Shown here: piece by piece, positions 1 to 63,893 of the stretch
Layout: every line of letters begins with the position of its first letter
How positions within the stretch are numbered: the first letter of the stretch is position 1
NCBI GenBank assembly: GCA_964106915.2
Contig: OZ066919.1
DNA: 64,000 bases
Reading direction: 5' to 3' (one strand)
Origin: Podarcis gaigeae
Taxonomy: Eukaryota
Notes under the pieces: generated by a model
The model's database searches: none
What the model was told of the DNA's origin: nothing
The model's input: the letters and a program-made list of their open reading frames with translations, nothing else
Translations under genes and position numbers: made by a program

Positions 1-677
1 TCCATTATTATCCTGAATATATATCTCTTCATTGCTCTCATGTAAGAGTTTCTGAAGATGTATTTTGGAACAGTATTTTGACAATGCAGGTAGTCCTTCA
101 CATACTATGATCCTTCTAATCTTCTGGTCAGCTGTTTGAAAATCTAGAAATGTTCCTAATAGCATAATCACAGGCTATTAAAGGGACAGTCCCTCAACGT
201 TACTAGCACAGAAATACATTTCAGTATTGCTAATGTAAGTACTTAGTAATTTCATTCATTTCAGTCATAGCAGATGCAAAAGACTGTCTGTCGTGCTCCT
301 AAGTTAGGTACAATGTGATCTTTCAAAACAGTTGCAGTGGTGAATCCATGTAATAATTTAAACCCATCAAAGAGGAATTAATTGCTTCAAGGATAAGGTG
401 ACCTGAAAACTGGGTAACTTTCTCTGTGTCCTGACTGATCAGATAGATGGCAGTCTCAAGAAGACAAGCATTCAAACAAGCCTCCTATAAGAAATGCTGT
501 GTAGAGTGGCTGTGACAGCAGTGTGGCTGTTGTGCAGATTTTTTCCCCCCATCCAGAGAAAGCAATAAGTAGTAAGACAGTAAATTGTGCAGTGATGGAA
601 AACTGTCTGATTTAATGCAGCTGGTGAGTACAGAATTTCCAAATAGGCAAAGTATTCAAAAAGAAACCACATTCAGA

Positions 678-772
678 AGAAACAACAACAACATATAAAC
701 CTATGGCGTATGGGCCTGACAAGTTCTTTGCAGAATAAGCTTTCATTGGCAAAAGCCCACTTCATCAGATGT
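678..772 (-). mobile_element. Penelope-like element remnant with hammerhead-like core
   Basis: Minus strand CATCTGATGAAGTGGGCTTTTGCCAATGAAAGCTTA; related decayed copies at ~1722-1800 and 6382-6492. Confidence 0.55.
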
Positions 773-1959
773 AAGTTTGGGATCAGCTGTATAAATAAAT
801 TCAACAAGCCCATCTATGCTTAGCTGAAATTAATGCTTATTCTTCTCCTGTGTATCTTGTATTTCATTTCCTTCCCACTCCCCGTGTCAAATTCTAGATT
901 GTAGATCCTTGGGAAAGGAAACTGCCCTCATACTTTGCAACCCAGTACGCATACTGGCTGTGCTACCAACATGTGTTGTTCAGTGACCTTGGCAAAGACC
1001 TGTGGGACCAGGCTTCAAATCTCCACTTGGGCTTGAGATAAAGATAACATAATATAATCTTGCTGTTGTTACTTAAAATACAGCAGTGATTAAGTTTCAC
1101 CATACCAATGTTCCTGCATCAAATTATTTCTGAAAGCACTGGTGTGCACACATGTTCATCTATCATTGTGTGTGCAAATGCACTGCATATGTGCATACAC
1201 ACATAGGTCAGCTGATGGCAGCAGCAAAATGCAAACATCCCTCTCACCAGTGTAAGGAGTTGAGTGGGGAATGCATAACGTTTGAGAGAGGGCAATGCTT
1301 CAGGAAGCAGGTTCATGCCCTGTGGCGCAGCCCTGTGTAGCTAGTGACACAGGACAAGAAAACGAAGGCGGGAGGCCATCCTTAATTATCCACACTGTTG
1401 CCACCAAAAGCCTGACAGGGGCTGTTGGTTGCTAGGAACAAGTATACAGAATACATTGTGTGGGTTGGATTTACAGAACTGCTGAGGCAAGCGATCAAGC
1501 TAGAATTAATTGTGTAATTATCATGATTGTGAGTACAGTTAGGGTAATGATACATGCAAAAGATTATTTTCATTTGCATTTGTCTATACATGCTCATGGT
1601 TTTGCATGCAGTTCCATCCCCAAAGACTCCTTTGCATGGGAAAGGGGGGGTGGAGCAGACTGTTAATCTGGATTAGAAGAACACGAAGGGCTACAGTTTT
1701 ATATCCAAACTCAAAGCTCCAAAGAGGTAGCTGTGTTAGTTTGTTGTAAACAAATCCACAAAGATCCTTGGGGCACCATGAAAATGAACAGAAATATTGT
1801 GATATCCACTTTTTTTAACTTAGTGATTTAAGAAGCACATTTCAGTAACTAATATGAGAGAAAGGGGCAAAGTAGAATATTGTGGAACATCTGAGATATA
1901 TAGGTTGTAAGGAAGCAATGAGTGCATTTTACAGGACATCTGCTTAATATGTTTTAACG

Positions 1960-2365
1960 TAAGAATATATGAAGAGCCCAAAGGATTAGGCTAGCCCTGC
2001 AGCCTGTTCTCACAGTAGCCAACCAGCAGGACTTGAGCACAACACCAATATTACCCTCCTGCGGTTTTCAGCAGCCGGTATTCAGAACCTTATTGCCACC
2101 AAGAGTGGATGCAAACCATAGACATCAGAGTTCATAGCCATGGATAGCCTTATTAATTCCTCTTTCAAAGCCACCACCACCCCATGTTGATGGACATCAC
2201 TGCCTCTTGTGGAAGCATAAGTCCATAGCTTGACTTAGCACTGTGGGAAGAAGTTCTTTCTATTGTATGTCCTGAATATTCTGATGTTCAGCATCTTGAG
2301 ATGCCCATGAATTCTAGTGTTATGATAGATGGAGAAAAGCTTTTCTCTCCCCACTTTTTTCTATA
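1960..2365 (-). mobile_element. CR1-type LINE 3' end, decayed
   Basis: Aligns by eye with 39667-40617 and 17660-17990 (e.g. GATGCCCATGAATTCTAG..GATGGAGAAAA). Confidence 0.65.
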
Positions 2366-2449
2366 CTGCCAGACTAAATGATTCAAGTTCTTACAAACGT
2401 GGAATTGGTATTATGTGGCACCTGTAGTTGTGCCAATTCTGCTGATTGA

Positions 2450-2630
2450 AGGGGTCAAGCGGGCACATGTGGGGTATGACGATCTTGTAGGTAAACTGGT
2501 CCCAAGCTGTTAAGGGCTATAGCGACATCTTGAACTTGGCCTGGGAGCAGATTGGCAACCAGTGCAGATCTCTGAGCACAGATGTTTATACTCTGACAAG
2601 GTCTCACTCCTGTCAGTCGTTGTGAAAACA
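2450..2630 (-). mobile_element. Old L2-type LINE fragment
   Basis: Translates to ALNSLGPVYLQDR, homologous to ALNGLGPVYLKER in the younger copies at 49.4 and 55.9 kb. Confidence 0.6.
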
Positions 2631-3285
2631 GAAGAGCTGAAATTTTACATTCAGCAGTGTACCTATCTGGGTTGTTGTTGTTTTTTAAGCAATGCATTGT
2701 GCACCATGCTATTCACAAAGCTGAGATTCTTAATTTAGTTTCAGTTTCTAACAAATGCACATTTTAGGAATATTCAAGGATTTCTCTATCAGACTCATGC
2801 TAACTTCCACAGTTTGCCCCACGCCTTAGTCCTTAATACAAAATATAGTGTTGTGCCACCAAGTGCCAAAGCAAAGATCTGCACATTTAGTTTGCCGTTG
2901 TTTGTTATTTTAAGTTCTTAAACTGACGGCTGCAGCATTCCTCTCCTCACTCCTCATCCCTTTAGCCTCTCTTTGTCCCAGCACATTCCTTTGCTGCAGT
3001 TTGCAGTAGCATAGGAACTACTTGTAGGAGCCCCAGACTTTGAAATCAGACAACAAAGTGAGGTTGTTGTTGCTTTTTTCCTCATTAGCAGATCTACTGG
3101 CCAGGAGGGCTCCAGGCTGCTCCCTGGATCCTTCTTCACTTCTCGGGGGGGGGGGGGACTAGAGGAACCAAATATTCTTGCTTATGAGTGAAATTGACAA
3201 GAACCTAGTTCCTCATGTAGCTTCTTAAATGGCAAGCTGTGGTGCCTAGAATGAGGAGGTTACTCTCAAGAAAGCATGCTAAATA

Positions 3286-4199
3286 CAGTGGTGCCCCACA
3301 AGACGAAGGCCTCTCAAGACGAAAAACCCGCTAGACGAGGCGCTTCGCAAAACGAATTTCCCTATGGGCTTGCTTCGCAAGAAGAAAGCCCATAGGGAAA
3401 TCTCCGGGGACCTCTTTTAAATGCTAGCGGTGGGGAGCAAAGCCTTTCCCCCCCCCTCCGGCCTTCAAAAGAGGTCCAGGAAGGCCGGCGGGGGCCGAAA
3501 GGCTTTGCTCCCCACCGCTAGCATTTTAAAAGCAGTCCGGGATAGCAGGGAAGCGCTTCCCGCTATCCTGGACGGCTTTTGAAGGCGGGCGGGGGGTGAA
3601 AGTCTTTACTCCCCCCTGCCTGCCTTCCCGGGAGAGCGGAGAAACGCAGCGTGTTTCTCCGCTTTCCCGGACGGCTTTTGAAGGCAGGCGGCGGGGGGGG
3701 GGGAGTAAAGACTTTCGCCCCCCACCGGCCTTCAGAAGAGGTCCTGGACCTCTTCTGAAGGCGGGCGGGGGGCAAAAGTCTTTGCTCCCCCCTGCCTGCC
3801 TTCCGGGAGAGCGGAGAAACGCAGCGCTGCTGCCCGCCAGCATTTTAAAATCGCCCCGGGAAGTCTCCGCTGTCCCGGGGGCTTTTAAAATGCTGGGGGA
3901 CGGCAGCGAAGGGTTCGCTGCCGCCCGCCAGCATTTTAAGACCGCCCCGGGACAGCGGAGAAGTCTCCGCTGTCCCGGGAAGGCAGGCGGGGGGGAGCAA
4001 AGACTTTCTCCCCCCACCGGCCTTCAGAAGAGGTCGGGGGACAGACTGTCCCCGGACCTGGTCTGAAGGCGGTTTCCATAGGAACACATTAATTGATTTT
4101 TAATGCATTCCTATGGGAAACCGTGCTTCGCAAGACGAAAAACTCGCAAGACGAAAAGACTTGCGGAACGAATTAATTTCGTCTTGCGAGGCACCACTG
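3286..4199. mobile_element. Non-autonomous Tc1/mariner-superfamily element (914 bp)
   Basis: TIRs CAGTGGTGCC(C/T)C(A/G)CAAGACGAA, TA on both sides, GC/CpG-rich internal direct and inverted repeats, no transposase. Confidence 0.92.
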
Positions 4200-5534
4200 T
4201 ATAGTAATTTAATTCACAGAAATGGTAAATGCTTGTTTGCATTACTACGTGTTTAAATTTGATTGATTGGTAACTGAATTCTAGAGAGTTCTCCAGTAGT
4301 TCTCATGTGATTGGCTAATGTTGGTCACATGGGAGCTATCTAATGAAGGAGACATTCCGTTTTGTGTGAAGCAAGATGACTGTGTGTCAGAATCCACTGT
4401 GAACACTGCTAAGTTGAATAGAGTGTTGGGATGCTACTTCTCTGCTTGAAAGAAAGGGAGCGAAGCTGCAGGAGAAGATAAAAATGGAAATCTCTCATAG
4501 GAGCTGCAAGGCAGGACCTAACAGAGATACAGAAGGCTGAGTGCTGAGCTCTGGAAAGAGGAAAATACAGTTGCTTGGAAGTTAGAAGTAGGGACTGTAA
4601 GCCCATGCTTGGAGAAACATGTGACTGTAAATATTTTGTTTTAATTCATCTATAAGTTTCTGCAAGTAAAGTCTGGGCATTGGTTTAATTTCCAAAGAAG
4701 GGTGTCAGGCATATATATTTGATTTTTTTGCTTCTTAGCTGCATTTTCACTACCCTTATTTCAACAAAAGCATACTGCCATCTCAAGTGACTAACAGGCA
4801 GAGAGCAATGCCCTCACCACAGACTTAAGGCAAACATATCAAGAATATACTGAGGAGGAAGCAAAGACTTCTTTAATGAGTTCTGCCCGCTCCCAATGGA
4901 AATAAGAGAGGCTACTGAGAGCGGTTGTCAACAGAACAGACAAAAAGACTTGTGCTTTCAACAACAACTTTATCAGCAAAAATCAGCAACAGAAGCTTTT
5001 CACAGCATGGAGATAAACATTACCTGCTAACTGGTGTCAATCCAACCATTGTTAAAAGCACAACTACACAAGCTGTAAAAGCTCAAATGATGGCCACCCT
5101 ACATACTATTCAATGCTGCTACTGGTGCAATCTCCAGATGCTGTTCCTGAGCCAAGTCTTTGGAAATACAGACACTGCAAACATGCCTTTAATCTGCTGC
5201 TGTGGAGCTGTGTGTGTGTATTTGAAAGAGGCTGTAACTAAGAGATGCAAGTGATTTCCCCCCACATAGCTTTTTGGTTCATTTTTATTTAATTTGTTTC
5301 CTTTTCCTTTTCTTGAAATTGCATTAATTAATTTACTAGATTCCCCCCCCCCCCGCAGAGTGCATCAGGAGGCCCAACCATTCATCTGCTGTCTGTAACT
5401 TCCAGGTTTTCTATCCAAATGGCATGAAACTTGCAAGGACTGTACTAGCTTCCAAAGACATCAGGCTCCCCAAATTTCAGATAAGGGCCACTATTTTACA
5501 TTATTTTGAAAGGCGCACCGGCCAAAATAATAAA

Positions 5535-5735
5535 ATAAAATAAAATGTTAATTTCACATATATGCTCATGGGGTCTGAACTGGAGGAACCTTGGGGTCAT
5601 AGTAAATAGCTCGATGAAGATGTCAATCCAGTGTGTGGCAGCTGTGAATAAGTCACATTTCATGTTAGGGATCATTAGGAAAGGAATTGAAAATAAAACT
5701 GCCAGTTTCTTAATGCCATTATACAAATCTATACT
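5535..5735 (+). mobile_element. CR1 LINE ORF2 fragment
   Basis: LGVIVNSSMKMSIQCVAAVNKSHFMLGIIRKGIENKT..MPLYKS, typical CR1 post-RT region. Confidence 0.8.
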
Positions 5736-6121
5736 GTAAATTTCTCTGTGCCTAACTGTGCGGAGGCTGAGATACCAGGGGAGGGGGTAAGTGCTTGAGA
5801 GACCTATGGTAGGGAGCAAATTCAAATATTATCATGTTTTTTCTCTCTGCATCCACTCTGCACACACACTCTCCTTTTGGTAAGCATTGCTCTGCAGCCT
5901 TTAAGATCCCAAAGTGGCATTGGCACACACTCTAATAGATGGACAATCTTGTTCTGTTCTCGTTGAGAAGTTATGACAAGCAAAGAGACACACATACTTT
6001 AACCCTTCAAGTGCTTGCTTGAGCCAGCATCAGCAGAAAAGAGCCTGCTCCATCACAAAGGTGACTCTGTGTTAGAAAGAATAGAGACAGAAAGACTATT
6101 TACTATTAACTTTGTCCAGAG

Positions 6122-6373
6122 CAGGGGGTCAGCAAACTTTTTCAGCAGGGACCCAGTCCACTGTCCCTCAACCCTTGTGGGGGGCTGGACTATATTTTGA
6201 AGGGGGGAAATGAACAAATTCCTATGCCCCACAAATAACCCAGAGATACATTTTAAATAAAAGGACACATTCTACTCATGTAAAAACACGCTGATTCCTG
6301 GACTATCCGTGGGCCGGATTCAGAAGGCGATTGGGCCTGATCTGGCCCGCGGGCCCTAGTTTGCCTACCCATG
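6122..6373. mobile_element. hAT (Charlie-like) MITE
   Basis: Termini CAGGGGGTCAGCAAACT...AGTTTGCCTACCCATG; 8-bp TSD GTCCAGAG/CTCCAGAG. Confidence 0.85.
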
Positions 6374-6381
6374 CTCCAGAG

Positions 6382-6492
6382 GGATAGCTGTGCTAATCTG
6401 GTGCAGCAAAAACAACAAGGAGTCTTGTGGCACCTTGAAGACTCTCGAATGGCGTAAAGCAAAAGCTTTAATGGTCCCCTTGATCAGATGCA
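6382..6492 (-). mobile_element. Penelope-like element remnant
   Basis: GATAGCTGTGCTAATCTG..CAAAAACAACAAGGAGTCTTGTGGCACCTT..TCAGATGCA; similar to 1722-1800 and 678-772. Confidence 0.55.
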
Positions 6493-7284
6493 CAAAGTAT
6501 TATCAAGAGAGAATGAGAGGGGGTAGCAATTAGTGAACTTATTGTGAAGCTCTGCATGTAGAGTTATAAAATAAATGTAGAATGTTGCAGTCCTATGCAT
6601 ATCACTTGGAATTAAATCCCTGAAACTTCTGAATAAACATACATAGGAACTGGCTGTAGTCTTTCCTGATCATTCTCAAATCTTTGCAGTTCCTCCTTCT
6701 AAACTGCATGCGGATCGTAAAGAGGCTACTTGCAGAAGACGAATAAAAGAATGTGAGATTGGTACTACCTCAGATATTACTTCTTTGTTGTATACAGTCT
6801 CCTTTATTAATTCAAACGGTCATTTAATCTGCATCTTCTGTATGCATTTGCACTTGCTCCTGTCAGCCATATTAATCATTTTAATACCTCAATTATACAT
6901 TTATTAATCTAGCCTATGTCTTTTCATTTCATTGTAGTAATAAGATCTTGTATGTTAATCATATTGGGGGGGGGAGGGGTTGTGACCGGACACTAGAGAA
7001 AGACAGATTACTATTTTGCTAAGCAGCCAGAAGTGTTGTCATATTAATCAATATTATCTCAGTAATTTAATACTACTTTTGCTCTGCATCTTCCCAATCT
7101 AATTATTACTAGCCAACAGTGTGCTGCTAAACAATGGAAATGTATCTTTGTGAGTTATCATCAGCATTTATATTGAGGCATTTTAACTTGCAAAACCAAG
7201 CTCCTGTTAATAATGTGCTATTTGCAGCACAATCCTATGCAACTATGCTCACAACTATTGAGTTCAGTAGGTTCTATAGCCAAG

Positions 7285-8269
7285 TACCCCTTCATGGATC
7301 ACTGCCTTGCTGTGGCGAAGGGGCTTGAATAACTCAGAGAAGCTATGAGCTATGTCCTGCAGGGCCACCCAAGATGGACAGGTCATAGTGGAGAGTTTTG
7401 ACCAAACGTGATCCACCTGGAGCAGGAACCAGCAAGCCACTCCAGTATCCCTGCCAAGAAAACTCCATGGACAAAGGCAACAGTCATATAAAAGTTATGA
7501 CGCTGGAAGATGAGCCCCTCAGGTCGGAAGGCGTCCAACATGCTACTGAGGAAGAGTGGAGGACAAGTATAAGTAGATCCAGAGCTGATGAAGCAGCTGG
7601 GCCAAAGCCGAAAGGACGCTCAGTTGCGGATATGTCTGGAAGCGAAAGGAAAGTCCAATGCTGTAAAGAAAAATATTGCATAGGAACCTGGAATGTAAGA
7701 ACCGTGAACCTTGGTAAGTTGGATGTGGTCAAAAATGAGATGGGAAGAATAAATATTGACATCCTGGGCATCAGTGAACTAAAATGGACGGGAATGGGCA
7801 AATTCAGTTCGGGTGACCATCATATCTACTACTGTGGGCAAGAATCCCGTAAAAGAAATGGAGTGGCCCTCATAGTCAACAAAAGAGTGGCGAAAGCTGT
7901 ACTGGGATGCAATCTCAAAAATTATAGAATGATCTCGATACAAATCCAAGGCAGACCTTTTAACATCACAGTAATCCAAGTTTATGCACCAACCACTGAT
8001 GCTGAAGAAACTGAAACTGACCAATTCTATGAAGACTTACAACACCTTATAGAAATGACACCAAAGAAGGATGTTCTTCTCATTATAGGGGATTGGAATG
8101 CTAAAGTAGGGAGTCAAGAGATAAAAGGAACAACTGGCAAGTTTGGCCTTGGAGTTCAAAACGAAGCAGGGCAAAGGCTAATAGAGTTCTGCCAAGAGAA
8201 GAAGCTGGTCATCACAAACACTCTTTTCCAACAACACAAGAGACGACTCTACACATGGACATCACCAGA
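7285..8269 (+). mobile_element. BovB (RTE) LINE 5' end: 5'UTR + APE endonuclease ORF, 3' part missing
   Basis: Open frame 7398-8285 with GTWNVRT, DILGISELKW, VIQVYAPT, IIGDWNAKVG, LYTWTSPD; no RT domain follows. Confidence 0.93.
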
Positions 8270-8272
8270 CAA

Positions 8273-8361
8273 CCTTACAACCTAATATCTCAGATGTTCC
8301 ACAATATTCTATTTTGCCCCTTTCTCTCATATTAGTTACTGAAATGTGCTTCTTAAATCAC
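8273..8361 (-). repeat. Inverted duplicate of 1823-1912
   Basis: Reverse complement of 1823-1912 with one substitution and one 1-nt deletion. Confidence 0.95.
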
Positions 8362-8462
8362 CACATGACCTGGAAGCTGTAAACCCCAGTAAAGCGAGAT
8401 GAGTGCCGCAACCCCAGAGTCGGTCACGACTGGACCTAATGGTCAGGGTCCCTTTACCTTTA
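8361..8462 (+). mobile_element. Sauria SINE 3' end
   Basis: Matches 63772-63893; ends in (ACCTTT)n tail. Confidence 0.88.
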
Positions 8463-9579
8463 ATGCTAACCATGAAATTCAGTTTGATACAATGATCCAA
8501 CAGTCATCCATCTAAATCACATTGTAAGATCAAGGCACAACAAAACTTGGGTTCTATCCTATAGTGGTTGTTGTACTACTTGCAGAAGATTCCAGGTTCA
8601 CTCTCCAGCGTCTCAAACTAAAAGGATGTTAGCATCAGGGTTGGGAAAGATTTCTGCTTGGAATGCCACAATTAGTTACAGTGGCAGAAGCTGTGCAAGG
8701 CAGCTTTATAACTTGGATTTCAGCTCATTTCCCCCCTCTTCTCATTTGCCAGACCTTTGATTTATTATACATGTTCACACTTTCAGTTCTCATTTTATTC
8801 CACAGCTTATAACTGCCTTTTCTTTCTTTTGCGTTGCGATGCAAAAGCACAAAGGACAAAATTGGCTGGACTTCAAATAATACTTGCAAACATGCAACCA
8901 GTTTTGTACGCAGGGAATTCAAAAGTGAAGAAAAGCTCTAATAGTTGGTTCTCTTTTGCAGCTGAAGAAGGCGGTACTGAAGAAGCAGTAATTAGGAAAA
9001 GCAAAATAAGTATTTTTACACTGTGCCACTGGTTGAACTGCCTTTGCTTCTTTGCGACCATGTACCACTACCACATACTCTTTAACACCTTTCCCCCCTC
9101 CAACTCCTAGTTTATTAATCAGACACACAAAACGATCATTACTTAACATATTTGTTTTTCTCCCTGCAAGTGGTGTATGCCTAGAGAGATGTCTAGGAAG
9201 ATAACCCAAGTTCAAATATCTAAGCTCTATTGCCCATAGATGAGACTTCAATCTGTGCTGGTACCTCACCATCTGCACTGTATATGGGGCTATTAGCCAC
9301 CAGAACAATGTTTGCACTGAATATATAGCAAGCAGGGGTGGACTTTGGTACTGTGCCACTCAGACTAGACCCAAATTTGACATACATGCCCCCATGTTGT
9401 GGGGGGGGCCTTCGGGGAAGGAGGCGTGAGGGCTCTGGAAGGGTCCTAGAGTTCTCCCAGCTACTTCCCAAACCTGGGCAAGTGCTAACTAGGCTTTGGA
9501 AAAGAGAACTTTAGGACTCTGCCATAGCTGGGAAGCTGCCCTAAGACTGCCTCTGGAACAAATATACACAATGTAAATA

Positions 9580-9821
9580 CAGTGGTACCTCTGGTTATGT
9601 ACGCTTCAGGTTACATATGCTTCAGGTTACAGACTCCGCTAACCCAGAAATAGTACCTCGGGTTAAGAACTTTGCTTCAGGTTGAGAACAGAAATCGTGC
9701 TCCAGCGGCGTGGCAGCAGCAGGAGGCCCCATTCGCTAAAGTGGTGCTTCAGGTTAAGAACAGTTTCAGGTTAAGAACGGACCTCCGGAACGAATTAAGT
9801 ACTTAACCCGAGGTACCACTG
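9580..9821 (+). mobile_element. Tc1/mariner-type MITE (242 bp)
   Basis: TIRs CAGTGGTACCTC..., TA TSD; same family at 10500 and 43004. Confidence 0.92.
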
Positions 9822-10499
9822 TATACAGTGTTTGTGAGAAGATGGGATGAAAGGAAAAAATATTCTGCTTTTTCTCAGGGCTGCTTCACAAAGTTTATTG
9901 TTTGGTAGGAAAGAGACTGACCTTAGAACACTGGGATTTGGCAAGTTGACACACCAGTGTGTCATTTGCTTTACAGCTCAGGCTTGTATACACATTACCT
10001 CTGGCTCCAGTATGCTCCCCCTGCTGATGCTTGAAGCTGAGTACACACGACATGAGCCACAATCCACAGGTATCCCTGCAGCTTCTTGAGAAGTACTCCT
10101 GTTTTGATGCTGTTTCCCTAAAAACTGATTTGAAAAGAGGAGCCAAGGTTAAGCTGGGGTGTGTACATTTCAGGCAGCCGTTCGTACATGCACAGATGAC
10201 CGAACAGGAATTGGAGCTCAGTGCAGGGAAACAAATAAGGTAATAGGTGGAGACCTATTGGAGACATCCCTGCCCCCTCTCTGGTCTGTACAGCAATGTA
10301 AGAATGTGGCTTGAAACACAGCTGGTGGAAGGCGGGGAGAAACAACCTTGGTGGGTTTCAAGCCACTAATGTGTGCACAACCTCAGTCTGCCTATATGAA
10401 CATGGTAGTGAAGCATTGTACTACTTCACTGTAAACAAAACTCATCCAAATCAATTTGCATGTCCATTATGCCAATCTGGTTTAATTGTTTTCCTTCTA

Positions 10500-10692
10500 C
10501 AGTGGTACCTCGAGTTACAGACACTTCGGGTTAAGAACTTTGCTTCAGGATGAGAACAGAAATTGCACCACCGCCGCGGTGCAGTGGCAGTAGGAGGCCC
10601 CATTAGCTAAAGTGGTACCTCAGGTTAAGAACAGTTTCAGGTTAAGAACAGACCTCCAGAACGAATTAAGTTCTTAAACTGAGGTACCACTG
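10500..10692 (+). mobile_element. Tc1/mariner-type MITE, internally deleted (193 bp)
   Basis: Same TIRs and TA TSD as 9580-9821, lacking ~50 bp near the left end. Confidence 0.9.
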
Positions 10693-11646
10693 TATTTTCC
10701 TCACAGCTGAATATTTATGGCGTTTATACTTTGTTCTTTACCCAAAAAGTGGCTTCCATACTAAAAATCCGCACTAAGACTCAGGTTCGCAATCGAAAAA
10801 GTCACAGCGGGTGAGGGAAAGGGACTAAGAGGGAGGAGAGAAAAGCGAGCTCAAACACAAGTTTTTCAAGTTACAGTTCTTAGTATAACATAGTTACTGG
10901 TATGTGCAGATTTCGGCTGTCTAGAAAAGCAGTAACTCCCCACTGATGTCAGAAATATTATAGAACTATTTACATAATTAAAATGGAATTGTGGGTATCT
11001 CCCCCCCCCCCGGTTTTACAGTTTGGGAGCAAAAGCTGTTAGATAATAGCTTATTCTATCCTATCATTAAAATTTGAATCTGGAATACCAGTTGTCTTGC
11101 ACTGGAATGAAATGAGGAGTGTGCTGTCGGACTTGGGGGTGGGAGGAGGTAACAGGTCAGGTCCAGTTTAGTAAGCAATATACAAAGCAAGTTGAGAGAA
11201 ATTGTCAGGTGCAATCTGAAAACATAATCACACTAACTAGTAGGTTGAAAGAAGCTATTTCACTTACCAAGTATATATCCTTTTCGAGCGCATAATAAGG
11301 AAAGCAACAGCCATCGCTTCTGTTTTACAGTTAGGGAATGGAAAAGGCAAGGAAAGTGACGGAAAGCAACTTTCCTAAAGTCTGTTGGTTATTCAACTTG
11401 GTGTTAGCATGTTTCCAAAGTCACTGGAGGTACACATTTTGCATATGAATTAGTATGTGTTCGGCATAAACTTGCATATATAGAGTGATTGTGTCTGCCT
11501 GTAAATTTCATAGAACTTTATTTTCTCAATGTTTGTTTCCGATGCAGTTTAGATCCCCAAGGCTGCAGTCCCTTTCAGACTTACCTGGGAGTAAATCTCA
11601 ATGAACTCAATGGTGCTGACTTCTAAGTATTTACTTAAGAGTGTGT

Positions 11647-11648
<2 letters not shown>

Positions 11649-11691
<43 letters not shown>
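11649..11691. repeat. (AG)n microsatellite
   Basis: Direct reading. Confidence 0.98.
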
Positions 11692-11693
<2 letters not shown>

Positions 11694-13499
11694 TATAAAC
11701 TGCTGAAGCAGCCTGACAAAATACTGCCCGAGTGAAGTAATTCTGAAAACCTGCCAAATGCACAGCTTTCCATGGCTTTTTGTTTTCTTGCCAGCAAGCC
11801 AGCTCCTTTTGACATATGAATTAGAAGATCCTTTCCCTTCAATGGGAAGCCCTATTTATTTTGCAAGCTTGTTACCAACCAGGGGGTACATTATTCTTTA
11901 ATGCATCTGTGTAACTTCCATTAACATTGATTGGTATTACGTGTACTTGATGAGAAAATCTGTACCTTTTGTTAAAATGGAAGCTCTGTTGTGACTTATT
12001 TTTTGATGGCATTGGTGATTATGCCATTGCTATATAAGATTTTAGAGTGTTTTGTTTACTGTTTGATGCTTATTTATTTATTTTAATTAAGCAGAAATCC
12101 AGCATTTAAATACACCTTCCCTTTCTTCTGATAAGAAGCACACTTTTCAGAGTATGATTGGAAGAGGAAAATAAATAGTTTACTGAGCCCCTCTGTCCAA
12201 AGGCAGGACCATTTGCCATCCATCTCAACTATCCTTTATCCATCTCACAATTCAGTCACTTGGTTTTGAGGAAAGTACACACAGTGGTTAAGACCGAGTT
12301 AGGCAGACACATTAATTCTGTTTCCTTTGGGGAAGATTTTCCTGTGGTTTTAGTTGAGTTTTGGGGTGACATGGTGCTTGGCTCTAAAAATGGAAAAATA
12401 ATATTTCACTAGCCCCTTGTGGGCTATTTTCACATGACACTGACTCCATTTTTGCAATTCCTGTGCCTGTAATTGGATTGTAAAACCCCATATTGGCTAG
12501 AGTGTAGATCCAATTTTTAAATGGCTCACTTCCATTTTGCCCTACTTCAGGAGCATCCTTATTGTACAAGCACACCCATTCCTCTGCAAGCATTTCCACT
12601 TCTTCAGCCACTCATAAGTGAAAAATGCCCTTTGTGTTGTTTATGAGCTTGATCTTTGAATCACCCAGATTATCCACAAATTATTCAGCGTGAACTGGGA
12701 GATGCGGGGAGCCAAGTGCCATGCACTATATTAAAATGGAAGAAGCTTATTTTGGGGAGTAGAAACTACATAGCTTTCTTTACTCCAAAAAGTTTGCCAG
12801 GTAGGAGTTCAGCAGTAGTAGTTAAAACTGGATCCCAGAAACAATGCCATGAACCATTTTGGATCTTCCAGTGCCATGGCCCATTATTATTTTTTTATCT
12901 TCAGGACCAAACCTGCTCTACTGTTTTATGTTTATTCCTGTTGCCAGAGCCCAGAGGCTTCAGTCAGGATCAGGCCCAGTCTTGTATTATTGCATCTCTC
13001 TACCCAGAGGAGCCTTATGCTCATGCGGTATAATTAGGTACCACATCTGGCAACACCGTAAAGAGAGCCTTATTTTTCCAATCCATCCCATTCTTGGAGA
13101 AAGTTCAGATTCCCTTCTTTAACAACCTGCTGCCACCACCCTGGCCCTTTAACAAGAGAGGAGCCAGCTTGCTGTCAATTAAACAATTTGCAGCTTGCCT
13201 CCTTGAGCTTCGCCTTCATTTGCTACTTCGGGTGCAGTTCCAAAGCGAATCCGCGGAAACTGGCAAGAAGCAAGCCGCACTAGTGCTTTGCATATCTTAA
13301 TAGCTATTTTCGTCCAACAACAGGAGGGAAACTCCCTCTCCCTCCCTTCCTGTCGTGAAGGTAAGATTATGGGCTGCCAGCAGCCAAGCTCTGTTCAGGG
13401 CGCTTTCTCTCTTCCAGCTATCTTCCCCACCCTTTAAGTGAGAGGGTTAGGTAGGTGCGCAGGTGTATAGCGGGTTGGCTAGTTAGCCAGAAAGACCCA

Positions 13500-15300
13500 A
13501 CTTCGCTTCCGGTGGCAGAAAGAAGCTTCTTTTGTTGAATCTCTGTGTCTCTGACATCGTTCTTTGGAGTGCGCGCGCGTGTGTATGCGCGCGCGCTCAC
13601 AAACACACACACAGCTTTGCAAAGCAGTCTGCGGGTCAGTGTGTCAATGTGCATATGAATGGGTTGCGATGGGATGTATATACCCAAGCATTGATTTGGG
13701 GTAAGGTGAAGCGCTGCGTGGCGAAGACTTGCCGCCGCCGCGGCTTTACTTGGACTTTGAACAAATGGTGGGGGCCGGTGGAACAGGTTTCCAACCCCCC
13801 CCCCGTCTCCAAACCGCTCGGGGATTGCGTCAAGGCTGGGGAGGAGGATCCTCCAGGAAAGAAATTAACTTACAAAAAAAAAAAACCACACACATACAAA
13901 ACCACAAAGGCCGCCCCACACGTCTCTCCCTTCCCTCCCCGCTCGCCCCTCCCTCCGCGCTCTGATTTGAAATGGGATCCAGCCGCAGCCTTTCGCCGGG
14001 GCTTAGTCGCCTCCTGCCCGGCTCGGATTCGCACCGGCAGCAGGAGCGAGAGGAGAAGCAAGAAGGAAGAAGAGCGTCGGGCTCTTGCGCGCGCCAAGGA
14101 CTTGGCCCCGCGTTGCACAGCTAAGCCCAGCTGCTGTTGCTGCTGCTGCCTCTGCTGCTGCCGCCTGGCGCAGCCGGCGCAATAGTCGAGGGCAGCCAGA
14201 GAGCTCCTCTGCTCCGGCAAAGCAGAGCGAGCCGCCGCTTCGTGCTCCGCCTCCCGGCGAGGGCAGGAGAGCCGAGCGACCCCAGAAGCGCCACGGAAGG
14301 CGCCCACTCCGTCTCCGGCAGGGACGCGGCGCGCGGGGAGCCTCCGCCTGGGCAGGAGACGAGGCGATGCCGGGGCGTCCGGCCGAGCTCCGCGGCGCCT
14401 GCAGCCGCACTTGCTGCTGCTTCTGGAAAGGAGAGCTGCTCCTGACACGGGGAGAAGCAGGGACATGCTGCCGATGCACCTCCGGCCCCGGCCAGGTGAG
14501 CTGGCGGGCAGGCTGGGCGGCCAAGCGGGGTTGGTTGGGGGAGCAGGCGGGCGCGCAGCGCGGGGCCACGGAGCCACCCAACGGGAGAGCCGAGCGCAGC
14601 CCTTGCAGGAGGACAGCGGGGCGCCGCCCGTGGCGCACTCCCCGGCTGCCTGGCGTTGTGCGTCCGGCTGCCCCTCTTTTCTTGGAGGCGGTGCAGGCTG
14701 CAGAGGAAGGGGGGTTCCCCGATCTCTGCCCGGTACAGCGGGCCTGAGTCCCAGACGCAGCTGAGCTGGGGTGGGCGGCGGGAGGCGCCGGGGAGGGAAG
14801 CCGGAGAGGTTCGGGAGGGATCTCCCAACTTATTTTCGGAGCGCTGCGGAGGGCGGGGGACTTGCGCGCTCAAGGCGGCAGAGAGCCGCTTGCAAAACAA
14901 CCGCTGGTGTTTCGGCTCTTCGCGTTAGCAGAGGGGGTGGCGAGGGGAAGCATCTGCTCAAGGAGCGGCGGGAGCGGAGGCATTGCTGCTTCTTGTTTCG
15001 TTAGCCTTCCGGATTTGCCTGCTTCTGGCGGCGCTTTGGGGTTGCTCTCCGCGCGCCTGCTTATCACTTGTGGACTTGTCGCTTGGAGACGCCTGGCTCC
15101 GACTGTGCTAACTTTCTCCGCTGAAGTGCAGTGCGCCTGAGTCGGCTTCGGAGCAGACGAAGAGTTCTGCTTGCCGCCGGTGACTCGCCCGGATGGCTCA
15201 TTCAGACATGCGCGGCGTTCCTCGGAAGCCACGGGCAAGTCACTGCGAAAAAACGGGGATATGCCTTCTTAGCCCCGCCGGAGTACTTTTTAAAAGGCAG
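13500..15300 (+). promoter_or_regulatory. SULF2: CpG island / promoter of SULF2
   Basis: Abrupt GC- and CpG-rich block in an otherwise CpG-depleted window; ETS-type CCGGAAG on the minus strand near 13505-13512; GC boxes; lies 15 kb upstream of the first coding exon. Boundaries approximate. Confidence 0.85.
13990..14495 (+). other. SULF2: Probable non-coding exon 1 (5'UTR) of SULF2; 5' boundary (TSS) is a guess
   Basis: Strong donor CAG|GTGAGC at 14495/14496 inside the CpG island; exon 2 has its own acceptor and only a 71-nt UTR, so an upstream exon is required. Confidence 0.6.
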
Positions 15301-16947
15301 TGAGCCTTAAGGCTAGAGAGGTAAAGGAAGCAACACCCCAAGTGAACGACTGCAGACTTCTTTGCCTTTGCAAATGCATCATTTGTCAGACTTCTGAAAT
15401 GTCAGTTTGTGCATCACTTTGGCTATGGTGCGGACCCCTCCCCAAATTTTTATAAATAGCACGAAACAATTTAAAGTGCTTGGTTGTCAGGGTGCCGCCT
15501 CATTTTCAGGGACTGTCTTAATTTTGGACATCACTGCCCCATAAGGAGCATGATCCCATATTCACAACTGCTAGGCACTGTAGAGACTTCTGAGGATGGA
15601 AACCTTATCAGTGCTGGTTGTGTATAAACTTTCTGAGCAGTCAGTTATTTGTAGCGAAGCTGTGCTTTTTTAAAAAGGGGTTAAACTTAAGACTCTGTAA
15701 AAGGAAGGTTTTACCTGGGGGTTCTGAGATCTTTGGAACGCATACTGGAAAAATGACGAAGTGTTAACATGAGAATGGCTAGCTTTTCGTGCTCTGCTGC
15801 AATGCCAGCTATGGGTTGATGCATTTGGTGTGTAACAGCCAAAGTCATGCAACTTGGGTCTAAGAAACAGTTATGATTGTTTATTTCTGTGAAGGTGCTT
15901 CCAGGTAACACTTAAGATTTCTGTCAGCATTATTAAAATACATTCTTGTTAACAAAAAAAAAGGGTATAGAGAGAGTCTATTCGGAAAGAATGTGTTTCT
16001 TTACAAGGTTGGATAGTATAGATTCTGATTGAAGTCATTTCTGGTTGCAATGTTCACTGCTTGGAGTATTCAGTGGGGAAGGTATTTCTGATGAAAAGTT
16101 AGACATTTGCACAAAAGGTATACTCGCCCCCCAATAGCTCAGCTACGTAAAATTGGACTGCTTGAAAGAACTTCAGCTGTCATCATTAGTAGTGACTTGA
16201 GATTTCGGTCTGTTGTCATACTTTAGAATTTGACTCACCAAATGGGAGGTGGGGGAAATCCGCTATACTAGTGTTACAGTCTAAATAAGAGGTTCAGAAA
16301 TACTAATCTTAACGTCTGTTTGTATGCACACAATGAACTATTGAATGAAATGGTGAAGTGAACTTTTCAGTTGATGTAATATGTAGTGTAATATTGGGGA
16401 ATGTTGGCCAACCCAGCTTCCATTGAGATTCGCAAAGCTACCTTTTCTTTTTCTGGGGCCATGTGTGAAACCAAAGAGCCTGACTCTGAAAACATCTGTA
16501 TTAGAGTAGAGGTACTGAGGGGCTGGGGAGGGAGGCAAATGCACAAACTCCAGCAGAAATTGCAGAACTGGCAATGCAATGATCAGCATACCTGCTTCAT
16601 TGGGATGGTTGCTAAGGAATGAATTTGATGTATGGATTTATTTTCATGATTTTAAAAACATGACAAATTCTGCATTTTTTCGATCAGTTAACACATCTGG
16701 CATAATCAACAGCTATGCCAAACCCAGCGGGGGCAAGCTGCTGCCTATTGGCCTATATTTGGAGATGTCCTGCTCTCTTGTATTCTTCCTATATTTAGGC
16801 TATAGTTTGAGGAGATGTTTCCATGCACCCCAATCCTAATTTTTTTTTTTTTACCAAAGAGTTAAATGAGACTTGCCTCCCAGGAAAGATGCTTAGTATT
16901 TAAAAACAGGGAAATTCTTTGTTTTTATGTAGTATGTGTGTGAAATG

Positions 16948-32294: not shown

Positions 32295-34705
32295 TATTAG
32301 TGCAGTATAGGACTGCAGCACAGCCTGCAAGTGTTGGGAGACTTCATTGCTGTTCATTTTATGCTGTTGCAGCCTCTAATGGATAAGAAATACATATCCT
32401 GCTGGTGAGCATGTTCTTCTGCTTTTCTTTAAGGGCATTAAAATAGAATTTCCATGTTGCGCAACATATTTTTGTGGAAGAGAAATCCAAAGAAGCAACA
32501 CTCAGCTCCTGCAGCTATAGGCATTAACAAAGAAAACATCATTTTTATGATGCTCCTCATTTCTTTCAAATTTTTTTTAATCACAAATGACATTTAGATG
32601 TATTTTTAAATTCATAAGGTGACTAGAGCATCTCTACTGCAGTTGGGGGTGGGTGGAAGAATTGCATCATGGTTTAAATTCAGCAAGGTTAGGGAAGGTT
32701 TTTATCTCACCGTTTTGGTGAGAATGTGGTGCGTTTTAGAGCTAGACAGACCCGTTTCAATAATGCATATTCCAAAAAGCTGTGCACATTATCTCAGTCT
32801 CCTGTGACTAAAATCCAGAGGGTGGTCCTTAAAAATTTATCACGATCTGTTTTATGCCAGCCTGCTTGTCTCTGATGCAATTGTCAAAGTCCTCTGGGCG
32901 GTGTACTTCCTTTCTCCAGATGATCTGTTGTCTCTCGCCAATTTCAAGCACAATGGCCCATGTGTCCACACACATTAAGATCTGACCAGAGAGAATGCAT
33001 TTCGTGGAGCCAGGGGGTGGTCTTCCTCAGGCCTCATTAGACGATCCATGAGACCACATATTAGCTTGAAATAAGATTTTTCCTTAAATCTTGCCTAAAG
33101 CTTTAGGCAAATGTGTCCAACTAGATCAGTCAGAATGGACGCACTGAGTTAAAGTGTTGTGATAGATGCAATGTGCTCGTTGCAGTTTGTATCTCTTATC
33201 AAGTGGAAGTGAACTTGGTCTTTGGAAGAGCTTGTTCATGCTTTGCTGCAGCGATAGGAATTATGAGACATTAATGGAGCACATTCGGAGGGCCATGTGG
33301 TGTGCAGGTGGGGCACAAATTTAACAAGTGAATATGTGCTTGTTCTCAAGCTCCTTAACAAGACTTTGGAAAATATTGAGGACTCTTAAAATGCTCTTAA
33401 AATGTCAGGTTCTAGATTCTGGAGGCATCTAAACATGAAAAGAAAGAAAAAAATTGCAGAACCAATGGCTCCTGAAATGCAGAAATCCAGACACTTGAGA
33501 GAAATTTGCATTGTTATGTGTGAATATAAGGGAACTTGTATACTTTATTACAAACTTCAGTGGCTACTAGCCATGATGGTTTTGTTCTACCTCCACTGTC
33601 AGAGGCAGTTTATCTGTGGGCATGTAGGTGGGCAGAGTGCTGCTACAATCACCGTCCTGCTTGTAGGCTTCCCATAGGCATTTGGTTGGTCACTGTGAGA
33701 GGAGGATACTGGACTAAATGGGACATTAGCCTGATCTAGCAGAACTCTTCTTATGTCCTTGTACTGCAATCCTAAACACATTTACTAGGAAACAAGACCC
33801 ACTGAATTAGGTGGGACTTAATTATGAGTAAGCATGCTTATTATTGTACTGATATTGATGTCTATGAGCTTTGCATGACAAAATACAAAGGAGAAGCTGA
33901 AAAAATGTGCAGAAATGTCAGAATTACAAAGGCTATCAAGCAATATCTAATTCACAACATTTTTAATTTTTGTGTGCTTTCAAACTGTCTTCAGTTATTG
34001 GTTTCATTCCCCAGTTGTTCTGGAGATGAGGACACGCAGTTCTTTCCTAATGATATTTTTATTTATTTGAACCATTTAAATACCAACATTCCTCCAAAGC
34101 CAAGAACAGGGTTGCTTACAACGATAATAAAATGCTATTATCATATTGAAACAATTCTTAAAACCAACAAATAAAATAAAATAAAATAAAATGTGCAGGA
34201 ATGAGAAATAGTTACTTGAAAATAAGACCCATTCATTTAGGTGGGACTTTCTTCCAAATAAGCATTATTAGCCATGCAGGTTTAATCCAAGTCTGCTTTC
34301 CCTGAACGCAACCTGCTGCCTTTTTGTCTACATGTCCATATCAGTAAAGAACAATAGGCACCTGTCTCCTTTTTGGGGGGAAGCCTTTTAAATAGTTGGA
34401 GATTGATATCAAATTCCTTTTAATCTTTCCTCATATTGCATGCTTTAAAGCTTGGTTGGCCTCCAATTTGCTATACCCTTGTTAAATTAAGGCTACTAAA
34501 GAGACCAATTTCTCCAGCAGTGGCCAGCTCCCATGCTATTATTACTTCCTATGGGTCAAAGTAGACAGTAAATTGGAGATGCTTGAATGATCTCTTGATT
34601 TTTGTTTAATAGAAAGCCGCCACTGGAGGCTGCCTGCTTAACCAGACCTTAACCCTTCCCCATCCTCATTTTGTCCTTTCAAAATTGTCTTTCTCAAGCT
34701 GCTTG

Positions 34706-42039: not shown

Positions 42040-42075
42040 CTTGTGAGTGAGGTGGAACTATTAAGATCAGGAGTA

Positions 42076-42406
42076 AAAGTAAAGGGACTCTGGCCGACTC
42101 TGGGGTTGTGGCGCTCATCTCGCTTTATTGGCCAAGGGAGCCAGTGTACAGCTTCCGGGTCATGGCGCCAGCAGGACTAAGCCGCTTCTGGCGAAACCAG
42201 AGCAGTGCACAGAAACGCCGTTTACCTTCCCGCCAGAGTGGTACCTATTTATCTACTTGCACTTTGACGTGTTTTCGAACTGCTAGGTTGGCAGGAGCAG
42301 GGATCGAGCAACAGGAGCTCACCCCATCGCGGGGATTCAAACTGCTGAACTTCTAATCGGCAAGTCCTAGGCTCTGTGGTTTAACCCACAGCGCCACCCG
42401 CATCCC
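42076..42406 (-). mobile_element. Sauria SINE
   Basis: Reverse complement of 63533-63893 with a small 3' deletion; 13-bp TSD AAGATCAGGAGTA. Confidence 0.93.
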
Positions 42407-43003
42407 AAGATCAGGAGTAGGGGCCCTCTTAACACTTGGGAGAGTTAGGTAGGAAGTCAGCCATCTTTCAGATATTTGGGGGGTAACTCGTTTTAAACAC
42501 TAACTTGAGAAACTTGAATTGGGTCCGGAAAAGCATTTTTAATCCAGTCCACACTGTCTTCCTACCTTCCCCATTTCCTTGTACTTAACTTATTTTTAAT
42601 TCATCATTAGAGAGAGAGAGAGATACTAGTATTTGGAGTGATCTGTGGATCAGACTGTGAGTATTTTTAAAGCAGCCTACAAAACGAGGACTCTTCCCCT
42701 CCGCCCCCCGTTTAGCAGGTCTTAATCAGTTGGATAAACTGACAATACATAGAATCCCTGGCAATTTCATACCAGTTGGATGGAAAACACAGAAGTGACA
42801 AGCAACAGAAGAGTCGCCATGGCTCCCATTGGAAGCAAAACGGATGCTAATAACTGAAACTAGTTCAATAACAATGAAAATGGCTGAGATGATGAATAAT
42901 TAAATAAAGTGAATGGAATGGCTGGGTTAAGTAGGGAGAGGACTCAAGGACCTATACTCCAAGAGGAGGCAGTATCTCACTTAGGGTACGGATAAACACT
43001 CTA

Positions 43004-43245
43004 CAGTGGTACCTCGGGTTAAGTAGTTAATTTGTTCCGGAGGTCCGTTCTTAACCTGAAACTGTTCTTAACCTGAAGCACCACTTTAGTTATTGGGGCC
43101 TCCTGCTGCTGCTGCGCCACCAGAGCACGATTTCTGTTTTCATTTTGAAGCGAAGTTCTTAACCCGAGGTACTATTTCTGGGTTAGTGGAGTCTGTAACC
43201 TGAAGCGTATGTAACCTGAAGCGTATGTAACCCAAGGTGCCACTA
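43004..43245 (-). mobile_element. Tc1/mariner-type MITE (same family as 9580)
   Basis: Reverse complement of 9580-9821; TA TSD. Confidence 0.92.
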
Positions 43246-47351: not shown

Positions 47352-47851
47352 GTTGTTGTTTAGTCGTTTAGTCGTGTCTGACTCTTCATGACCCCATGGA
47401 CATGCCAGGCACTCCTGTCTTCCACTGCCTCCCACAGTTTGGTCAAATTCATGCTGGTAGCTTCGAGAACACTGTCCAACCAACTCGTCCTCTGTTGTCC
47501 CCTTCTCCTTGTGCCCTCAATCTTTCCCAACATCAGGGTCTTTTCCAGGGAGTCTTCTCTTCTCATGAGGTGGTCAAAGTACTGGAACCTCAGCTTCACG
47601 ATCTGTCCTTCCAGTGAGCACTCAGGGCTGATTTCCTTCAGAATGGAGAGATTTGCAGTCCATGGAACTCTCAAGAGTTTCCTCCAACACCATAATTCAA
47701 AAACATCAATTCTTCGGCGATCAGCCTTCTTTATGGTCCAGCTCTTACTTCCATACATCACTACTGGGAAAACCATAGCTTTAACTATACGGACCTTTGT
47801 TGGCAAGGTGATGTCTCTGCTTTTTAAGATGCTGTCTAGGTTTGTCATTGC
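47352..47851 (-). mobile_element. 5'-truncated BovB LINE 3' end (500 bp)
   Basis: AMTNLDSILKSRDITLPTKVRIVKAMVFPVVMYG..ELWCWRKLLRVPWTA..LEKTLMLGKIEG; (CAA)n tail; 12-bp TSD TATCCACCCCAT. Confidence 0.95.
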
Positions 47852-49053
47852 TATCCACCCCATACCTGGTGCCATGTATTATTATTATTATTTATTTATT
47901 TAAAGTTGTTTTAAGCTGTTTTTAATATTGTGTAATATTTTAATATTAATGTTGTGTTTCACTTGTTGTAACTCCTCCTGGGTAAAGAGTGGGTTGTTGA
48001 TTATGATGATGCACACTATATCAAACTTGGCATGGTGGGCCGAGTTAGGTCTGCAAACTGGTGGTTCCACACCTAGATTTTGGAACATATAAACAAAACC
48101 TATCACAAACCTCAGGCTAATTCTAAACTAATAAAAAACAAAATTGAGACGTACCAAACACCTGATTAAAAACACAATATCTATCATAATCCATAACATA
48201 ATACACAAACTGAGCATCCAATAGTACAATAATGCAAAGAAACCTTATATCTTATCAGTTAAAGCAGAACAATAACATGATTGTACCATGTCGAAATGCT
48301 CCAAATAGAGGATATTTTGTTATTGTTGTTTAAAAGATTATGAGCTATCTGTTTCATTTCTTCTTTCTCCTTCGATCACTGTAGAGTAAATAAAGTTCGC
48401 TGTAAGCTTTTCTGATTTCTTTTTCTCTGTGGTCCCTGTAGAGCACAGAGTGCATTTAGAATTTCATCAGGGAATTCTCACGCAGGCAGAATCATTCTCA
48501 GCAATGGGCAATCATTCTGTCACCACCAGCTTAAAGAACATCTGCACAGCCACCAAAAATCAATGGATGATGTCATTGGACTGCTGTGTTGCACTTAGCC
48601 AGAGGATCAGAAAGCACTCTCTGAATGCATGTTTTGCATTCTTTCAGAGCGGGCCTTCAACACTTCTTTTACTCATCTCCAGCGTTTGAAACTCCCATTG
48701 TTCTAGGCACGTTTTGCGACAAGGAATATCATTAGCGCGAGCAGTTTCTGAACTCTAGGTTGGGTGCATTGCTGCGCCTAACATTTCAGATTAAAACTGC
48801 AGAGTGGAAGGAAAGGAGGACCTTTTTCTGCCTCCTCACTTCCAGCCACTCTCTGAAGACTGGAAAAGAGACCCTCTTAAGAATATTGGGGGGGGCGGCA
48901 GGCAGGGGAAGCATGGCTTTGTTTTTAGCAGTCTTCAGATGAGGACTAGGCCATGTGAAAAATGAACATAAGATTCTAGCTGCAGTCAGCTTTGAATTCT
49001 TCTTATTAAAAAAGTGCACCTAGTCATTCTGTTGTTGCACTCATAGCCTAGGT

Positions 49054-49732: not shown

Positions 49733-49788
<56 letters not shown>
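49331..49788 (+). mobile_element. Young L2-type LINE 3' end with (ATT)n tail
   Basis: VLTFKALNGLGPVYLKERL..RAFSVVAPALWNALP..FRRHLKAALF. Confidence 0.9.
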
Positions 49789-55584: not shown

Positions 55585-55631
<47 letters not shown>

Positions 55632-63451: not shown

Positions 63452-63532
63452 GTGCTGGAAGTTGGGGAGCAGCAAAGTTCTGGAAGGACAGAGCTGTCTG
63501 ATTCTTTTATAGGGGGAAGTCTTGATTCTTAT

Positions 63533-63893
63533 GGGATGCGGGTGGCACTGTGGGTTAAACCACAGAGCCTAGGGCTTGCCGATCAGAAGGTCGGCGGTTC
63601 GAATCCCCACAACAGGGTGAGCCCCTGTTGTTCAGTCCCTGCTCCTGCCAACCTAGCAGTTCAAAAGCACGTCAAAGTGCAAGTAGATAAATAGGTACCA
63701 CTCCGACGGGAAGGTAAACGGCATTTCCGTGAGCTGCTCTGGTTTCGCCAGAAGCAGCTTAGTCATGCTGGCCACATGACACGGAAGCTGTACGCCGGCT
63801 GCCTCAGCCAATAAAGCGAGATGAGTTCTGCAACCCCAGAGTCGTCCGCAACTGGACCTAATGGTCAGGGGTCCCTTTACCTTTACCTTTACC
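63533..63893 (+). mobile_element. Full-length Sauria SINE
   Basis: tRNA-like head with B box GGTTCGAATCC, (ACCTTT)n tail, TSD TGATTCTTAT/TGACTCTTAT. Confidence 0.95.

Follow-up and report, generated by a model that had tools for sequence, protein, structure and literature searches.

A truncated BovB LINE joined to a Sauria SINE tail through an inverted copy of upstream DNA in the lizard Podarcis gaigeae

Here we describe a composite unit at 7287-8462 of a 64-kb window (the whole stretch of DNA analysed, 64,000 nucleotides of Podarcis gaigeae contig OZ066919.1), in which the 5' piece of a BovB LINE is followed by a short linker, an inverted filler and the tail of a Sauria SINE. The structure is real, and the tripartite make-up proposed in an earlier note on this DNA (BovB 5' end, inverted upstream copy, SINE tail) is borne out by self-matches and by homologues. 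Our best single reading, on which we place about even weight, is that a single deletion made by template switching, at least 2.5 kb long and ending in a resident BovB on one side and a resident SINE on the other, produced the unit. The core that this reading shares with a SINE insertion accompanied by target-site deletion, namely loss of the BovB 3' part mended with a locally templated patch, is likely. The weights given here and below to the competing readings are judgements, not computations. The features of the unit, its donor and the comparators used in this study are as follows.

7287..8269, plus strand: 5' part (~983 nt) of a BovB (RTE-clade) LINE, identified with the five best lacertid BovB proteins and with the P. 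muralis copies of >3 kb in the PMC13295347 supplement
7467..8285, plus strand: open frame of 272 aa, a truncated APE-type endonuclease ending in YTWTSPD plus NLTT and a stop, identified with the PF03372 profile
8270..8272, plus strand: 3-nt linker from neither parent, at junction 1 (J1)
8273..8361, minus strand: 89-nt inverted duplicate of 1823-1912 (88/90 identical)
1823..1912, plus strand: AT-rich donor segment of the filler, found by self-match
8361..8381, plus strand: Sauria/Squam1 SINE, first piece, entering at position 241 of the 362-nt reference copy
8382..8389, plus strand: 8-nt insert in place of 19 nt of the SINE, at junction 3 (J3), identical to 8410-8417
8390..8462, plus strand: SINE, second piece; includes the sequence in common with the BovB 3' end and an ACCTTT-type tail
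63532..63893, plus strand: comparator full-length Sauria SINE with a target-site duplication (TSD) of 10-12 nt (1-2 mismatches)
42071..42407, minus strand: comparator full-length Sauria SINE with a perfect 13-nt TSD
47352..47863, minus strand: comparator 5'-truncated BovB that ends in (CAA)n and is flanked by a perfect 12-nt TSD

The filler is the reverse complement of the donor over 88 of 90 alignment columns (E ~1e-36 to 4e-38), the differences being one substitution and one 1-bp gap in a TA run, and the self-match thereby confirms the 89-bp inverted copy with two differences that had been reported. Of the 20 self-matches that the window yields at E<1e-10, this pair has the highest identity; its two members are 6.4 kb apart, with the donor upstream. 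The possibility that the 90-mer is a common dispersed repeat finds no support within the 64-kb window, where a third copy was not found. The filler has a GC content of 34%; no Rfam family matched within 1-16,000, and none of the three tandem-repeat rows found falls inside the donor or the unit. Two 73%-identical fragments of an old repeat, which we take to be Penelope-like, lie at 1716-1782 and 6373-6439, and the donor begins 40 nt past the first of them; the match of that fragment to its only relative in the window ends at 1782, short of the donor start at 1823.

The 5' end of the BovB piece (7287/7288) coincides with the first columns of the alignment of P. muralis copies of >3 kb in the supplement of PMC13295347. 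Since identity to the same copies ends at 8269, the three nucleotides at 8270-8272 constitute a linker. The ~1 kb formerly described as BovB 5'UTR plus endonuclease frame holds as a total, but the 5'UTR alone accounts for only ~180 nt and is followed by the N-terminal part of the ORF. Similarly, the frame does end at YTWTSPD as described, but the linker intervenes before the filler, which had been said to follow directly. The frame is open over 7389-8282, runs from YTWTSPD into NLTT and closes with a TAA at 8283-8285; comparison of these coordinates with the filler (8273-8361) agrees with the claim that the filler supplies the stop. Among lacertid BovB proteins, the five best matches to the product, from Podarcis muralis and Zootoca vivipara, share 88-93% identity with it. 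Because the P. muralis copies run to ~3.2 kb by the coordinates in the supplement (PMC13295347), ~2.2 kb of the BovB 3' part is missing. This remainder does not occur in the 64-kb window, in which a 998-aa BovB protein matches only the 5' piece and 47363-47863 (minus strand). The copy at 7287 has no reverse transcriptase domain, no (CAA)n tail and no TSD of an intact insertion, and it is a remnant rather than an intact element; its 3' truncation and its lack of a tail and TSD are features of endonuclease-independent insertion. The 5'-truncated BovB at 47352-47863 was considered as a displaced 3' half of the 7287 copy and was ruled out by its own perfect TSD. The TSD of that fragment is preceded by a T, and the fragment lies downstream of a sulfatase exon at 44.3 kb.

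The tail at 8361-8462 (102 nt) matches the full-length Sauria (Squam1) SINE at 63532-63893 and contains both the BovB-shared 3' region and an (ACCTTT)n tail, in keeping with the RTE-type 3' end noted previously. The tRNA-derived 5' head is absent from it, with 240 of 362 nt missing. The 3' flank begins with TA, and the tail type and the T-start of SINE TSDs have been described in PMC13295347. The unit had been said to carry the last ~100 bp of a Sauria SINE, which is right as to length, but the tail is not one plain piece, as J3 lies inside it: 19 nt present in both full SINEs of the window and in one P. muralis copy are replaced by 8 nt at 8382-8389. Outside J3, our reading against the window and P. 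muralis copies gives two CpG-type changes and one 1-bp gap. The full-length SINE at 42071 has its own internal deletion of ~20 nt near the 3' end (42071-42110, minus strand), so small deletions in SINE tails are not rare. The SINE is cut off within the 7-nt loop of what is predicted to be a stem-loop (63750-63791 of the reference SINE; whole-region z -1.56); on this folding model, the loop could be a stop for reverse transcriptase or a break site at a DNA hairpin, and it does not discriminate between models.

The absence of a TSD around the unit, which the earlier note had reported, was supported by scoring of flank pairs: the best score was 3, a value reached by 215 of 500 random pairs. The full SINEs scored 7 (63532-63893) and 13 (42071-42407), values reached by 7/500 and 0/500 random pairs, respectively, and all three of the other BovB/Sauria insertions in the window have a TSD, which the unit lacks. 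A canonical 3' junction at the SINE tail with no TSD is expected of a SINE insertion-mediated deletion and of the best explanation alike.

Although the frame had been regarded as an endonuclease-only cassette, this view was not sustained, as the catalytic IDY and SDH motifs are both cut off. The PF03372 match of the frame product spans profile positions 1-174 of 225, and the frame stops 7 residues before IDY and 33 before SDH, as measured on homolog P0001. Both motifs are present past the break in 8/8 aligned homologs, including ruminant CFDP2 and p97Bcnt. In a PDB search with a single sequence, IDY aligned with its counterparts in two proteins, an L1 endonuclease variant and a bacterial exodeoxyribonuclease, and SDH with that of the exodeoxyribonuclease only; a profile search drew only elongation-factor matches by way of a fused homolog. 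IDY contains the catalytic Asp, equivalent to L1 D205, and SDH the catalytic His, which presumably corresponds to L1 H230; both L1 residues are termed absolutely critical in PMC4837594. Judged by its predicted translation, the frame product is a catalytically incomplete remnant that lacks needed catalytic residues. Its private amino-acid changes look neutral in the sequence comparison, with 4/138 at invariant and 4/117 at variable columns (Fisher p=1.0, on few changes and at low power), and no constraint was seen among them. The probability of finding no stop under neutral decay is 0.3-0.46 at this divergence in a model that leaves out frameshifts, and the open frame is therefore unsurprising; in our best explanation it would have survived by chance. 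The exact product is absent from a collection of 15 billion proteins (0/2 exact look-ups), and no protein above 92% identity to it occurs among the 120 matches listed.

CFDP2 and p97Bcnt (P0008, P0014), which we take to be ruminant host genes with a BovB endonuclease domain inside a host protein, resemble the lizard frame in having the BovB endonuclease region without the reverse transcriptase. However, they keep IDY and SDH, whereas the lizard frame has neither motif and shows no constraint. A Podarcis raffonei gene model annotated as "elongation factor 1-beta isoform X1" (P0006) also holds the whole BovB endonuclease region with IDY and SDH; because 16 of 150 otherwise invariant columns are changed in it, it is probably a decayed exonised repeat and not a CFDP2-like recruit. 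Another protein, P0041, 78% identical to the BovB frame, comes from a 2.3-kb contig labelled as bacterial, and that record is probably contaminated.

Three joints lie within 120 nt of each other, each with a short local repeat, and all three motifs were spotted before being tested. At J1, a 7-nt direct repeat (8269-8275 = 8277-8283) is present, and 3-4 of the 64 possible trimers give as long a repeat. At junction 2 (J2), filler and SINE overlap by 1 nt at 8361, and the 7-mer at 8357-8363 equals BovB 8261-8267; under a narrow null, 14/5000 random joints match the last 15 nt of the BovB as well as this, and 81/5000 match the last 30 nt, whereas under a broad null drawing on all nearby templates 409/4000 reach that length, a set in which a handful of very long matches probably arose where SINE sequence was drawn against SINE. 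At J3, the 8-nt insert repeats sequence located 28 nt downstream, and only 98-138 of 65,536 8-mers are so templated (2-3 of 256 under the most cautious parse). J3 is the only joint that convinces by itself, J1 being matched in ~5% and J2 in 0.3-10% of cases by the null. With two window copies and one P. muralis copy as the comparison, the J3 change could still characterise a SINE subfamily or have arisen later as an independent mutation.

By inspection, the joints together resemble serial microhomology-primed synthesis as in SD-MMEJ, for which the criteria are a repeat of at least 4 bp within 30 bp of the joint (PMC5728401). Short direct repeats with a partner within 30 bp do cross J1 and J3, as at the SD-MMEJ/polymerase-theta junctions of that source; however, an 89-nt template 6.4 kb away exceeds the usual range. 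A chain running from the BovB end to the donor, back to the BovB end and on to the SINE could be written with overlaps of 1, 3, 5 and 3 nt. A mirror-image chain from the SINE side could be written equally well, and the overlaps would give no direction.

Keeping this in mind, we propose that a full-length BovB and a downstream Sauria SINE on the same strand would already have been in place in the lacertid germ line. A break or stalled fork would then have cost at least 2.5 kb: ~2.2 kb of the BovB 3' part, the inner copy of each TSD, whatever spacer lay between the elements and the first 240 nt of the SINE. Repair may have proceeded by serial microhomology-primed synthesis (MMBIR/FoSTeS-like or polymerase-theta-like), with a short detour to the opposite strand 6.4 kb upstream that would have supplied the 89 nt; the 3-nt linker and the 8-nt insert would stem from shorter slips, and the product would be a dead single-copy scar. 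The deletion of host DNA, the prior presence of both elements, the order of the switches and the enzyme are elements that we infer. We favour this template-switch deletion because inverted duplicates at kilobase distance and clustered small scars are its regular features. Template sites in human deletions reportedly lie 2-6 kb from the breakpoints, as is said of work by Abyzov in 2015, a figure that we do not rely on here.

The large deletion with a locally templated inverted patch, one of several routes named in the earlier note, is the best-supported reading and represents a known class of structural variant (PMC4617611). In that survey of 29,954 resolved human deletions, 1,651 were complex (at least 10 bp of extra DNA) and averaged 3.1 kb, the commonest complex class being "Ins with Dup and Del" (501), with 191 more, as we interpret the figures, showing several duplications; inverted duplications of <1 kb mostly stayed within 5 kb of the sequence they copied, as a rule with no link to retrotransposition (PMC4617611). 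These "Ins with Dup and Del" and "Inverted Dup" variants, as portrayed there, resemble the lizard unit in combining kilobase loss with a short nearby duplicate at the breakpoint, often inverted and sometimes accompanied by several duplications, and they are attributed in that source to template switching (PMC4617611). They differ from it in that here both ends lie in RTE-family repeats, the donor is 6.4 kb away, past the 5 kb quoted there, and the scar occurs in a lizard and is known from the derived allele only. The donor is also farther away than the template range of up to 100 nt given for MMEJ in PMC6258378. Counting against the template-switch deletion is that the right breakpoint must land in a same-strand SINE, full copies of which make up 1.1% of the window, a coincidence that a SINE insertion avoids. 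The ages of the parts overlap and are inseparable: the filler carries one substitution in 88 sites (0.01-3.2% per branch), and the BovB is roughly 1.4-2% old by our estimate from amino-acid changes.

Two known routes that were not in the earlier note compete with the template-switch deletion. In one, the main rival though in our view unlikely, BovB protein would have started target-primed reverse transcription of a SINE RNA at ~8462. The resulting ~110-nt cDNA would have slipped over a small hairpin and, instead of joining the neighbouring DNA end, been linked by way of the 89-nt genomic patch to a full-length BovB already present upstream, with loss of at least 2.2 kb. Such an insertion explains the SINE at the right breakpoint and the canonical-looking 3' joint (tail, then TA). 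The 19 nt lost at J3 do form a small predicted stem-loop in 2/2 copies, which favours a slip, but shuffled sequences fold just as stably (z -0.56 and -0.01). That SINE-mediated deletions seldom span several kb also counts against this route. Target-site deletions by L1, Alu and SVA are documented in two studies (PMC4859970, PMC4229983); in a third, 5'-truncated L1 inserts carry more target-site deletions, and three have genomic templates near the site (PMC11702581); and in a fourth, 22 templated inserts of <250 bp occur among ~3,600 somatic L1s (bioRxiv 2024.08.27.596794). Like the lizard unit, the events portrayed in these sources have a canonical 3' tail, 5' truncation and no TSD, together with upstream loss and a captured genomic template. 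However, they are known there for L1, Alu and SVA, with L1-associated templates typically within 15 bp (bioRxiv 2024.08.27.596794), whereas in the lizard an RTE-driven SINE would have reached 6.4 kb.

The other route is endonuclease-independent capture: DNA would have broken within an old SINE or immediately upstream of it, and the break would have been patched with the filler and a BovB cDNA that was primed internally and extended to the 5' end, at the cost of the SINE 5' part. Human non-classical L1 insertions provide a precedent, being 3'-truncated and without TSDs, with deletions in 18/21 and extra DNA in 15/21; one case has a 98-nt filler of local DNA, and one adjoins an Alu (PMC1920257). 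Two of them, NCLI48 and NCLI3, share with our unit a 3'-truncated LINE with no TSD, a local filler of ~100 nt and a neighbouring SINE, but in the NCLI insertions as described there the LINE is new DNA, as shown by the empty ancestral site, and the filler of NCLI48 is at the 5' end and comes from inside the deleted stretch (PMC1920257). Capture would also need a same-strand SINE break, a distant filler and a BovB RNA all at once, and near-contiguity of the flanks has no positive sign. We hold this route to be decidedly unlikely.

Reverse transcriptase switching from SINE to local sequence to BovB, also raised previously, stays among the rivals: in a single retrotransposition, the BovB enzyme would have switched from SINE RNA to genomic DNA 6.4 kb away and then to BovB RNA, continuing to its 5' end, with little loss of host DNA. 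The same-strand pairing of a SINE with its partner LINE and the exact BovB 5' end would follow naturally from such an event, the ages of the parts are compatible with it, and switching between RNAs is documented for L1 in PMC1920257. The TSD that this route predicts is absent, although insertions reaching the 5' end normally have discrete TSDs, at least for L1 in PMC11702581, and 3/3 local RTE-family insertions have one. Moreover, several switches are required, and the joined flanks fit the profile of an old repeat no better than chance (best of 15 offsets, 6.2 bits; 22 of 1000 single random flanks as high). Overall, we judge it very unlikely. The left flank at ~7220-7286 weakly resembles this old ~90-nt palindromic repeat (E 0.66 with a single-seed model), which also occurs at 6580-6662, 11555-11645, 16827-16911, 33756-33840 and 34199-34285; the profile built from five window copies gave no left-flank match at E<1.

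Another earlier proposal, a staggered-break inversion, which here would span 1913-8272 and leave one copy of the 90-mer at each end, was not upheld and is the least probable reading that we weighed, to the point of being barely credible. Inverted duplicates at two sites are the expected footprint of a staggered-break inversion, and the geometry of the pair fits. However, the BovB remainder is neither at the other breakpoint nor elsewhere in the window, which holds only the 5' BovB piece and the independent, TSD-flanked 3' fragment; a pure inversion is rejected on this ground, and any inversion would still need a multi-kb deletion. No left-flank 9-mer or longer word recurs near 1822/1913, and the one right-flank 9-mer that recurs lies beyond the donor ends, at 1775; repeats of this length arise many times by chance. 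Joints between high-copy repeats are error-prone in assemblies, and an assembly or read-chimera artefact was considered for this reason; a two-column difference from the donor, a linker and a second templated insert are not expected of an assembler, and an artefact has very little to recommend it. Finally, the whole unit might be a mini-element made by reverse transcriptase (BovB 5' end plus BovB-type 3' recognition stretch) that is transcribed and has daughter copies, a prospect that we consider highly improbable.

The unit had been placed ~5 kb upstream of the SULF2 promoter. A CpG island at ~13.2-15.4 kb does begin ~4.7-4.9 kb downstream of the unit, and a signal-peptide-like first coding exon starting at 29,701 and a sulfatase exon at 44,306-44,542 (29.7 and 44.3 kb) follow. 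The sulfatase gene is presumably SULF2, and the island would be its promoter. The ~5 kb to the CpG island is the only tie of the scar to regulation of the sulfatase gene. Several other repeats were observed in the window. TA-flanked elements with terminal inverted repeats, which we assume to be Tc1/mariner-like MITEs, lie at ~3287-4200, 9576-9833, 10497-10696 and 42994-43249, the one at 3.3-4.2 kb having GC-rich internal direct and inverted repeats. Two LINE-like 3' fragments of ~450 nt, 90% identical and each ending in (TAT)n, lie in inverted orientation to each other at 49332-49779 and 55585-56028, 5.8 kb apart.

Among the titles and abstract openings returned by our literature searches, no BovB-Sauria SINE fusion was described, which does not prove absence; a cattle L1-BovB chimera that arose by nested insertion is a described case. 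The lizard scar belongs to an ordinary class of events, shows no sign of function and adds a single reptile example to a class well described in humans. It also illustrates that an open "endonuclease" frame is no proof of function in a LINE that has lost its 3' part. The scar would matter more if daughter copies bearing its junctions exist: were the unit a mini-element made by reverse transcriptase, we would be seeing a non-autonomous RTE derivative arise, still at the locus where it originated. If BovB machinery made the unit, long-range templated insertion and target-site deletion would extend from L1 to the horizontally mobile RTE clade.
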